Source: a virus (lineage: Duplodnaviria > Heunggongvirae > Uroviricota > Caudoviricetes). From it: a DNA stretch of 13,381 bases. The stretch is from IMG/VR virus record IMGVR_UViG_3300032167_005013; one strand, 5' to 3'. How positions within the stretch are numbered: the first letter of the stretch is position 1; each line of letters starts with the position of its first letter. This document shows, piece after piece, positions 2,184 to 4,534 of this stretch. Under the pieces are notes generated by a model. The model did no database searches. It saw nothing but the letters and a program-made list of their open reading frames with translations, and was not told where the DNA came from. The translations under genes and the position numbers were made by a program.

Positions 2184-2696
2184 TTATGCACCTGCTGCTA
2201 CTGTGGTGCAATTGCATGGGCTGTAACTTGCGTAGCCTGTTACTGTAGGTGTTGAAGGAAGAACCACTTCACCTGAAATCATCTTGCAAGTACGTCTTGC
2301 GAGGTTGAAATCTGCAACAAGAGCCACATTGTCAATCTTAGAGTTGATAAGGGCATCCTGATAAGGACGGATTGCAGCCATCATATCTACCTTTCTATCA
2401 ACTTCACTGATTTTAGCACTGAGTTCATCTTTGTTATCCCTCTGACCTTTGTAAAGTGCGAAAGAGTTGTCAACATTGAATTTGTAAAGGCTGAAAAACT
2501 TCTCACTGAGGTCTTTTTGTCCGGCAATCTGAGCCTCATAATACTGTTTTGTCAATTCAATGTAATCAGCCTGCTCTTTTCTTTCATTGTAGAGTTCACC
2601 GTGAGGTACTCCTGAATCTGAAGGACATCCGCCGAAAAATCCATTAAAAAGTCCGTCTTTCATTGCTAAAATTCCGCCAAGTGCTGTGCCTATAAT
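2184..2696 (-). CDS. Exon 2 of intron-split uncharacterised phage protein (spliced product 192 aa)
   Basis: Starts IIGTALGGILAM directly after the intron-terminal G at 2697, in frame with exon 1. Contains a Gly-rich hydrophobic segment, a central helical region and a C-terminal SPCNC. Confidence 0.88.
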   Translation of the reverse strand: MIGTALGGILAMKDGLFNGFFGGCPSDSGVPHGELYNERKEQADYIELTKQYYEAQIAGQKDLSEKFFSLYKFNVDNSFALYKGQRDNKDELSAKISEVDRKVDMMAAIRPYQDALINSKIDNVALVADFNLARRTCKMISGEVVLPSTPTVTGYASYSPCNCTTVAAGA

Positions 2697-3122
2697 CAAA
2701 TATCTTCCATATAAGTCGTTAATTTATATGCGTTCTTTTACGAACTGCTGTATATTTCTATACAGATGAGACTATATCTTCATCTAAGTTACCTTAGAGC
2801 CTCCCATTTCCACTCACTTGAGTGTACCCTACTCCATTACATTTCTGTTGTTTCGGTAGTCGTTGAACCTTCAAAATCGTCATATTCCCATTTATACCCT
2901 AATGCCGTATTATAATGCCTTCCTGATGGTGAAACATATTTTTTATCTCACTATTTCCTTTAGGTTTTCCTAAACTTAAACCTGCTTCTTTGTCGGTTTA
3001 ATTACGTTTGGATTAATTGGACTTGACTTATTTGCTTGGCTGCTGATTGTCTTCATCATTACATGTTAAGAGTTCCCAGCAATTAAGGAGGTTTTATACG
3101 AGCATTATTAGTTAAACAGTTT
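2697..3122 (-). ncRNA. Group I self-splicing intron, 426 nt (IA-like, as in phage introns)
   Basis: Minus strand cores: P AATTGCTGGGAAC (3084-3072), Q AATCAGCAG (3048-3040), R GTTCAACGACTA (2868-2857), S AAGATATAGTC (2780-2770). Pairings: P7 GACUA/UAGUC, P4 UGCUG/CAGCA, P3 CCUCCU/GGGAGG, P8 UCUAAG-GUAA-CUUAGA, P9 CUGUAUA-GAAA-UAUACAG. The 5' exon ends in U, the intron ends in G, and removal restores the reading frame. Confidence 0.93.
2879..2997 (-). pseudogene. Frameshifted NUMOD1-like homing-endonuclease remnant inside the intron (P6 region)
   Basis: TDKEAGLSLGKPKGNSEIK, then a frameshift in an A6 run (2944-2939), then KYVSPSGRHYNTALGYKWEYD. Resembles the NUMOD1 pattern EAARxLG...SxI....KTAGGYxWKY. 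No start codon and no nuclease domain. Confidence 0.65.
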
Positions 3123-3188
3123 ACCCGTAGTCAGGCCTGCGTTTGCCTTTGCGTTAGTCGCCCATTTTTGTTCCATTACTTCTGCCAT
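3123..3188 (-). CDS. Exon 1 of intron-split gene (22 codons)
   Basis: ATG at 3188 gives MAEVMEQKWATNAKANAGLTTG (66 nt), joining IIGTALGG to give NAGLTTGIIGTALGG. Confidence 0.88.
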
Positions 3189-3317
3189 AATACTTTTGTG
3201 TTTTTAATTTGTTATTCGTTGGTTAAGCGCTTTTCCAAAATAAAAATGCACGTAAATCATTTATGGGTAAAAATGTTTTAAAATATCTTAAAACGCTGAA
3301 AATTAGACACTTATGAT

Positions 3318-3352
3318 AAAAAAAATGGCGTAAACCGTCGTAGTTTACGCCA
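3318..3352 (-). terminator. Intrinsic terminator
   Basis: Minus strand TGGCGTAAAC-TACGACG-GTTTACGCCA followed by T8, downstream of the stop at 3395. Confidence 0.85.
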
Positions 3353-3394
3353 AAATAAACAAAATTGAAAAAATAATAGATTTAATCTAAAAAA

Positions 3395-4534
3395 TTAGTT
3401 TTTTATTTTATTGACAACGATAAAAATCGACATGCCTATATTATATAATGTAACTAAAATTAATAGAATTATTTCTTGTGTCGTTGACACTTCTGATTTG
3501 ATATAATCAAAATCAATGAATTCTTTTCTTACCCAATCACCGTTTTCGAGGCATGACCTTAACATTTTGGAATAATCCACCAAATCCAATGAATCGGTTT
3601 CCATGAAATATGATTCAGTCTTTACGTCCAAAACGGGGGCATCACACCATGAAAATGCATTACACCACTTTACTTTAAGGCTATCATCAACACCAATGCA
3701 TACAACGAGTTCGTTTTTATTTCCACCTTTCCAATATGACCGCTGCAATTCCGATATCTCAAGGTCTTTATTTTGGTAAACAAGGACATAATTTCTGAAT
3801 TGATATCTTTGTCCATAGTAACCATTTATATACTTGATAGCATCAATCCCTTCTTTGGAAATTGCAACTTCACTGATAACAGGGGTTTGGTCATACCAAT
3901 CAAGTTCTGGATATCTATATAAACCAAGAGAATCAACATCTTTTTCATCTATCTCAGTGAAATTAAATATCGACCTACTGTTCTGTATTTTATTTTTATA
4001 TCTGTGGCTGGATGTTAAAGTGCAAATTGTTTTTTCTCTCCCGTCCCAATAATAATCCTGAGCATCACCATCAATACGATAATAATCGCGTTTCATGTCA
4101 ACGAATTTCATTGGCGGATTCCCAAGTTGTTTCTTAAACTTATTGAAATCTTCTTTGTAGAAAATTGTACCTTCATGACCATTTGCATCAAAATACGTCC
4201 ACTTCTCAGGATGATAATCTCGGTATGAACAATCATAATATTCGGTTGTATAAATGGTGTTACCTTCCGAATCAGTACCTGACGGAACTTCTCTTGAACA
4301 AGTCCGTTCAACCCATTCATCCCACTCATCATAATGACGTATTTTGGTAACATAGGAACCAAGATATTCTATATCGGTTTGATTTGCGGATACCATTATT
4401 GTCCTTGATAAAAGAAACAACAATAATGAGGGGACGATAAGAATAATATATTCCCACCAAACACACTCTTTCCTAAAGAAAAGAAGAAGAAAAATGGCCG
4501 TAATTAACGGCAATGCATAACAAATTATCTCCAT
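3395..4534 (-). CDS. Membrane protein with a TPM-like extracytoplasmic domain (about 379 aa)
   Basis: Two N-terminal hydrophobic helices and one C-terminal helix flank a large soluble region. YWKGGNKNELVVCIG recalls the TPM-domain W-x-x-G...VL motif of LemA-linked proteins. ATG 4534 preferred to the track's TTG 4543. Confidence 0.55.
   Translation of the reverse strand: MEIICYALPLITAIFLLLFFRKECVWWEYIILIVPSLLLFLLSRTIMVSANQTDIEYLGSYVTKIRHYDEWDEWVERTCSREVPSGTDSEGNTIYTTEYYDCSYRDYHPEKWTYFDANGHEGTIFYKEDFNKFKKQLGNPPMKFVDMKRDYYRIDGDAQDYYWDGREKTICTLTSSHRYKNKIQNSRSIFNFTEIDEKDVDSLGLYRYPELDWYDQTPVISEVAISKEGIDAIKYINGYYGQRYQFRNYVLVYQNKDLEISELQRSYWKGGNKNELVVCIGVDDSLKVKWCNAFSWCDAPVLDVKTESYFMETDSLDLVDYSKMLRSCLENGDWVRKEFIDFDYIKSEVSTTQEIILLILVTLYNIGMSIFIVVNKIKN

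Follow-up and report, generated by a model that had tools for sequence, protein, structure and literature searches.

The group I intron of the T4 td gene belongs to subgroup IA2, with the GIY-YIG endonuclease I-TevI encoded in sequence looped out of P6. Among gut phages, crAss-like phages carry group I introns densely in their core genes, that of the capsid among them (Yutin et al. 2021; PMC7886860). The main text of Chen et al. (2026; PMC12880540) describes 136 Jug jumbo gut phages that together hold 2,513 group I introns. These are large phages of gut Bacteroidales (genomes of 360–402 kb, 27–30% GC, ∼18 introns per genome) in which terL, nrdD, polB and other genes are often split by small group I introns and homing endonucleases, and metatranscriptome reads confirmed the splicing of introns in 37 cases out of 76. 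As far as these sources were covered, the published intron-split genes of gut Bacteroidota jumbo and crAss-like phages include those of the capsid and terminase (PMC12880540, PMC7886860).

The window analysed here is a stretch of 13,381 nt from an IMG/VR record (IMGVR_UViG_3300032167_005013), part of a contig of 85.5 kb with 35.3% GC that is estimated to be 20% complete. Positions are those of the window. The intron, its exons and all their elements lie on the minus strand (−), and descending numbers follow the RNA from 5′ to 3′. With high confidence the segment 2697–3122 (−) can be assigned as an IA-like self-splicing group I intron in a conserved 192-aa gene of the virion module of a large gut or rumen phage, probably of Bacteroidota. 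It is 426 nt in length and ends with the ωG at G2697. Exon 1 (3123–3188) runs from the ATG at 3188 to T3123 and comprises 22 codons (MAEVMEQKWATNAKANAGLTTG), while exon 2 (2184–2696) contributes 170 codons and the stop, giving a spliced product of 192 aa. The 5′ splice site lies after T3123 and the 3′ splice site after G2697, so that with splice sites marked by a slash the strand reads ATG (3188) ... CUGACUACGGGU/AAACUGUUUAACUAAUAAUGCUCGUAUAAAACCUCCUUAAUUGCUGGGAA ... GAAGAUAUUUG/AUUAUAGGC. The predicted exon–exon junction of this allele is ACUACGGGU/AUUAUAGGC, read at the level of codons as ACTACGGGT/ATTATAGGC.

An earlier note made from the letters alone had placed a group I intron here and proposed a covariance-model search. 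The search gives a match to Rfam RF00028 at 2748–3142 (−) over the full model (1–253), with 52.8 bits (E 3.1e-11) against a gathering score of 50, and RF00028 is the sole Rfam family detected in the window. The score is 2.8 bits over the cut-off because of a 141-nt insertion in P6, which corresponds to the endonuclease relic described below.

The boundaries are fixed by intron-less alleles, which the note had suggested should exist. A query with exon 2 retrieved 1,636 related protein clusters, the best 120 of which were examined. The best match (P0003, 192 aa, 98% identical) is exon 1 joined to exon 2, its residues 1–22 corresponding to exon 1 and its junction reading MAEVMEQKWATNAKANAGLTTG/IIGTALGG (...NAGLTTGIIGTALGG...). 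It thus matches the in-frame product ...GLTTG/IIGTALGG... that had been predicted. The gene for P0003 is uninterrupted on three contigs from different samples (L001–L003), where the neighbouring genes are the same, and alignment of the DNA with these alleles contains a single gap, located exactly at 3122–2697. The junction motif is invariant across an alignment of 16 full-length homologues.

Among the best 120 of the 1,636 clusters, 80 are full length and uninterrupted over the junction, 35 begin within 6 residues of the 3′ splice site (MIIGT..., LIIGT..., MWKKKIIGT...) and 5 begin at the next internal methionine. In each of the seven further truncated clusters that were checked, and at two metagenome loci, exon 1 lies upstream and an insert occupies the very same codon boundary, the pattern also seen for the truncated call of the window (P0004). 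There are nine other distinct introns at this site in related metagenomic phages, ranging from 254 to 1121 nt and all ending in G. Seven are compact and lack an ORF (L045, 254 nt; L026, 293 nt; L041, 297 nt; L021, 312 nt; L038, 318 nt; L040, 324 nt; L036, 373 nt), and two contain an intact endonuclease in the P6 loop (L043, 952 nt; L004, 1121 nt). A single site therefore exists as intron-less, compact and endonuclease-bearing alleles. The compact relatives score higher with RF00028 (82.4 bits for L026 and 77.1 bits for L021), while the Rfam scan of the endonuclease-bearing L004 intron gave no match even at E ≤ 1. Rfam negatives elsewhere in the contig therefore leave room for ORF-bearing introns. 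A search of the 85.5-kb contig by nhmmer with both core halves of this intron family found only the copy in the window, and a search of IMG/VR for related loci returned none with a single protein query and one locus with an alignment query.

The RNA has the architecture of a group I ribozyme, with the four conserved core elements P, Q, R and S, which the earlier note had also seen, aligned to the Rfam consensus. The internal guide (3097–3108) provides GCUCGUA (3103–3097), which is complementary to the last 7 nt of exon 1 (UACGGGU, 3129–3123) in a P1 helix of 7 bp with a U.G wobble at the 5′ splice site, and AUAAU (3108–3104), which is complementary to the start of exon 2 (AUUAU, 2696–2692) as P10. 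Both pairings, and the terminal G, are present as that note gave them. The spacing between P1 and P3 is only 5 nt, and P2 is therefore absent from this copy. The 5′ core (3039–3091), located from the Rfam alignment and RNAalifold, begins with the 5′ strand of P3 (CCUCCU, 3091–3086) and continues as the P element and P4 (3084–3073), the P5 hairpin, and the Q element and P4′ (3048–3039). Beyond the P6 insert lies the R element (GUUCAACGACUA, 2857–2868), which includes the 5′ strand of P7 (GACUA, 2861–2857). The ∼55 nt between GACUA and GGGAGG contain first a variable hairpin (P7.1), which is missing in L041 and L045 and weak in the window copy, and then the P7.2 hairpin (CACUC-AAGU-GAGUG, 2811–2824), an extra domain of IA type between P7 and P3′. 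The 3′ strand of P3 (GGGAGG, 2800–2805) is followed by the P8 hairpin (2798–2783), the S element (AAGAUAUAGUC, 2780–2770) with the 3′ strand of P7 (UAGUC, 2774–2770), P9 (2765–2748), P9.1 (2745–2732) and P9.2 (2730–2708). On the basis of the two hairpins between P7 and P3′ the intron is IA-like (IA2-like, of the T4 td and Twort type), a subgroup assigned by inspection. The minimum free energy fold of 2685–3135 alone recovers P1, P3, P4/P5, P6, P8 and P9 (z = −2.3). This and the covariation agree with the P3, P4, P6, P7, P8 and P9 pairings that had been claimed, all of which are located in the sequence.

The pairings are supported by covariation among the introns at the site. P1 occurs with exon and guide strands ACGGGU with GCUCGU, UUGGGU with GCUCAA, ACUGGU with GCCAGU, and ACCGGU with GCUGGU, each exon change being compensated in the guide. 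Compensatory changes affect four of the seven pairs, while the U.G wobble at the cleavage site never varies (eight of eight sequences). P7 changes from GACUA with UAGUC to GACCA with UGGUC in L004 and L036, and P3 is either CCUCCU with GGGAGG or CUUCCU with GGGAAG, covarying in L036. Two of the five pairs of P7.2 have compensatory changes, and double changes also occur in P5, P8 and P9.2 over the 10 distinct introns. In total RNAalifold finds double changes in 16 of 67 pairs. The final base is G in all 10 distinct introns, in all of which UAAU adjacent to the guide pairs with AUUA of exon 2. P10 lacks covariation because the exon bases are invariant. We regard such covariation as strong comparative evidence for selection on the RNA structure of the same-site introns, 5′-exon recognition included, and it indicates that the introns at this site splice.

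Alignment with the L004 and L043 introns shows that the intron is more than a plain ORF-less element. While the window intron has no sense-strand ORF of 40 aa or more, and thus no intact endonuclease ORF, its P6 loop contains the relic of a GIY-YIG/NUMOD homing-endonuclease ORF at 2837–2996 (−). The relic keeps the last ∼50 codons (∼160 nt), which a 13-nt deletion has divided between two frames, and ∼690 nt that include the catalytic domain are deleted relative to L004 and L043. The end of the old ORF overlaps P6′ and the 5′ strand of P7, and this overlap may be why the relic has been retained. In the relatives the P6 ORFs are intact, with 278 aa in L004 and 217 aa in L043. These match phrog_314, a homing endonuclease family (E 4e-24 and 2e-28 respectively), and a family with the GIY-YIG motif (E 4e-7 and 1e-10). 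NUMOD3 is above the Pfam cut-off in the L004 and L043 ORFs (24.1 bits against 20.4), NUMOD1 and GIY-YIG are slightly under their cut-offs, and comparison of the endonuclease with solved structures gave no detectable sequence match.

The exon sequence next to the 5′ splice site is unusually divergent. With the intron removed, the window is 96.6% identical to L001 over 5.8 kb (3.3% divergence), and the opening 44 nt of each exon are the same in both. Eight differences, all of them synonymous (Poisson 3.5e-7), fall in the final 19 nt of exon 1, the window having AAC GCA GGC CTG ACT ACG GGT where L001 has AAT GCT GGT TTA ACA ACC GGA. The codons at the junction are GGU/AUU in 10 of 10 intron-bearing alleles, while in the intron-less alleles GGU is found in 8 of 15 (the others being GGA or GGC) and AUU in 9 of 15 (the others AUC); within both groups the alleles are mutually related, and Fisher and shuffle-type statistics overstate their independence. 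Three explanations fit the cluster of exon differences, namely co-conversion during homing, selection on the P1 and P10 pairings, or selection of empty sites resistant to the endonuclease.

By the established group I pathway, UACGGGU of exon 1 would form P1 with the guide GCUCGUA, and an external guanosine bound in P7 would attack on the 3′ side of the wobble U (after T3123). The guide AUAAU would then hold exon 2 in P10, and the terminal G2697 would enter the G site, with ligation of the exons to give ...GLTTG/IIGTALGG.... The intron would have arrived by homing, using a GIY-YIG/NUMOD endonuclease with the I-TevI domain set, whose gene in the P6 loop was later largely deleted in this genome, and co-conversion at that time could have left the cluster of exon differences. 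With most of its endonuclease gene lost the intron should be immobile by itself, but should still splice. The window intron is a real group I intron, very probably functional, whose homing endonuclease has decayed and which occupies a polymorphic site.

It could instead be a splicing-dead, decaying relic, with the host gene either a pseudogene or expressed only as a 159–171-aa product of exon 2. The endonuclease has already decayed, which marks the element as old in its lineage, the Rfam score is marginal, and a spliced read of the window allele was not found among the metatranscriptome contigs. However, all core helices are intact, as are the ωG, P10 and the U.G wobble, each being identical to its counterpart in the compact relatives of higher score or compensated with respect to it. 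The exons remain open and together encode a protein 98% identical to that of the intron-less allele, the first 44 nt of exon 1 are unchanged and all differences in exon 1 are synonymous, and across the host-gene family the 22 residues at the N-terminus are conserved. We therefore consider a dead relic very improbable. Marginally less probable again is an intron that splices in vivo only with help from a host or phage RNA chaperone or a maturase-like factor, with no physiological self-splicing. Some group I introns need protein cofactors, and in this copy P2 is missing, P7.1 is weak and P6 carries a non-functional insert of 160 nt. Yet two of the shortest relatives (254 and 297 nt) lack P7.1 and are nevertheless maintained in intact genes, and T4 td, like other phage IA introns that hold a large insert in P6, self-splices in vitro.

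The gene calls present two separate units with an endonuclease relic between them, as would be found if the insert were an intergenic mobile element (the remnant of a free-standing endonuclease) between two small genes. The supposed first gene, however, is 22 codons homologous to the N-terminus of 80 uninterrupted clusters, and the insert contains a complete ribozyme core whose guide covaries with the upstream exon. The intron-less alleles and the covariation of P1 refute an intergenic element. A functional intron with a decayed endonuclease remains the preferred reading, and it could be taken further. The site might capture a complete, running homing cycle (empty site, invasion by an endonuclease-bearing intron, decay and compact intron) in jumbo phages of ruminant and other guts, with the 19-nt block of eight changes as its co-conversion footprint, the endonuclease possibly a weapon of competition, and the intron able to pass to or from Crassvirales. 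This extended proposal is a tentative one that we think rather unlikely in its entirety. Were the endonuclease to cut intron-less relatives in co-infection, the element would be a weapon of inter-phage competition, as has reportedly been shown for an intron of a Pseudomonas jumbo phage; and a virion gene common with Crassvirales could let the intron move between two phage orders.

Assembled contigs from four metatranscriptome runs were compared with positions 2400–3400. The only joint over the intron that is resolved to the letter (X15) passes from 2696 to 3135 with 12 letters between, and carries TTAACAACCGGA. These are the codons of the intron-less allele, and the joint was therefore rejected as a splice product of the window allele; it may even derive from DNA. 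The other joints (2696 to 3171 and similar) have unknown letters between their sides and short flanks. Joints from 2872–2876 to 3032–3034 were also rejected as splicing, as they correspond to relatives with other P6 loops. These contigs neither show nor contradict splicing of the window allele. In bovine gut metatranscriptome contigs (X17 and X18) at least six variants of the intron core are found over window positions 2872–3034 (−), differing in their short P6 loops, and some of them continue into flanking sequence that does not resemble the host gene. In these samples the intron family is diverse and abundant, and it is probably present in other genes as well.

The host gene is flanked by a 382-aa gene (phrog_2087, function unknown) on one side and by three small conserved genes on the other. 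The region also encodes a virion structural protein (phrog_1383) and a T4-type large terminase, whose best match is that of a Flavobacterium myovirus (26% identity). Related contigs are up to 341 kb in length, and the DNA is found in animal faecal and gut metagenomes. The host protein has no Pfam or PHROG family match and no meaningful match in the PDB, and an Atlas search returned unnamed viral clusters only. Its AlphaFold model is mostly helical and unreliable, the mean pLDDT of 46.8 making it too poor for a fold search. Homologues that are 33–52% identical occur in Crassvirales, some of them annotated ‘putative tail protein’, and in a Bacteroides fragilis phage. The splice junction falls inside a glycine-rich, hydrophobic stretch near the N-terminus (GLTTG/IIGTALGGILAM).

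After the host gene (region 2184–2112) the window continues with genes of ∼170, ∼113 and ∼176 aa (1582–2112, 1260–1601 and 707–1237, all (−)). This order resembles a block of the crAss-like phage cr106_1 beside a ‘putative tail protein’, where genes of 169, 125 and 216 aa are followed by a 383-aa gene and the major capsid protein. The gene order suggests a virion gene block common to this jumbo phage and Crassvirales. The interval separating exon 1 from the 382-aa gene contains a G+C-rich hairpin (GGCGTAAAC...GTTTACGCC) with a T run after it (3317–3351 (−)). This resembles an intrinsic terminator, and on this reading of the sequence the intron-bearing gene may have its own promoter. The surroundings vary between relatives. 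In L043 (131–688) and L045 (1521–2012) an SSB gene, with other replication or nucleotide genes, stands before the intron-bearing gene in place of the phrog_2087 gene, and an HD/zeta-toxin-like kinase, YqeY and IMPDH are nearby, an arrangement showing that the gene block has changed its genome context. In L036 (934–1421) and L037 (1596–1781) small opposite-strand ORFs (121, 41 and 61 aa) that are absent in the window separate exon 1 from the capsid-module gene upstream of it. In L004 (605–1597) the phrog_2087 homologue is called at 330 aa against 382, which may be a miscalled start or another interruption.

The interruption has consequences for annotation. Gene callers begin exon 2 at the false TTG (2699–2697) or at an internal ATG, and the recorded call P0004 is only 159 aa, bearing out the truncation that had been foreseen. 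About one-third of the best 120 clusters (of 1,636 matched) of this phage protein, which is widespread, have false starts at or near the 3′ splice site, and the miscalled entries lose 20–29 conserved N-terminal residues, including half of the hydrophobic segment. These entries and the 159-aa call should become joined coding sequences, and the value of the result is chiefly in annotation. The site also presents a natural series of unusual completeness (empty, endonuclease-bearing, endonuclease-decayed and compact) with clear co-evolution of guide and exon, so the locus is suited to the study of intron homing and decay in uncultured gut phages. General knowledge of group I introns is unchanged.

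The earlier note had suggested that such an intron may be undescribed. Group I introns of gut Bacteroidota jumbo and crAss-like phages are in fact published (PMC12880540, main text; PMC7886860), and only this host gene and site appear new. The host gene is not named in the main text of Chen et al. (PMC12880540), no account of this gene family being interrupted by an intron was found in the literature (for that paper, its main text), and none of the annotated records has an intron in a homologue of the host gene. To that extent the insertion site and host gene appear unreported, while the element itself is of a known kind. As in the Jug phages, gene callers fragment the split gene. Unlike them, the contig has 35.3% GC against the 27–30% given in that main text and one intron of this family in 85.5 kb against ∼18 per genome, and from its GC content it is probably of another clade.

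The intron core is 72–86% identical to cores in 266 phage records, phiKZ-like phages included, and by this sequence relationship the window intron is a member of one widespread phage intron family. The 3′ core (P3′ to P9.2, 127 nt) is 84–86% identical to those of the crAss-like phages cr116_1 and bajarodcaudo virus 1, where, unlike in the window, it lies in a different gene, beside nrdD and a ‘mobile intron protein’. In these genomes (L049 1746–2945 and L050 2209–2945 respectively) the end of the unannotated core coincides exactly with the point at which a 105-aa ‘hypothetical protein’, encoded upstream of nrdD, is annotated to start, and in cr116_1 the core comes after the ‘mobile intron protein’ endonuclease; the 105-aa gene probably represents the 3′ exon of an interrupted gene. 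In Herelleviridae and other large phages (Staphylococcus Twort/K-like, Listeria P100-like nrdA, Enterococcus, Bacillus PBS1, Pseudomonas 201phi2-1 RNAP and Lak megaphages) the 3′ core is 72–78% identical (85% for PBS1), but hosts and interrupted genes differ and the likeness is limited to the catalytic core.

The closest parallel is with T4 td. Both are phage group I introns with hairpins of the P7.1 and P7.2 type between P7 and P3′, a U.G at the 5′ splice site and P10, and the relatives L004 and L043 carry a GIY-YIG and NUMOD ORF in the P6 loop as td does. Unlike td, the window intron lies in a virion-module gene and not in one of nucleotide metabolism, P2 is absent, and the endonuclease persists only as a frameshifted 3′ relic.
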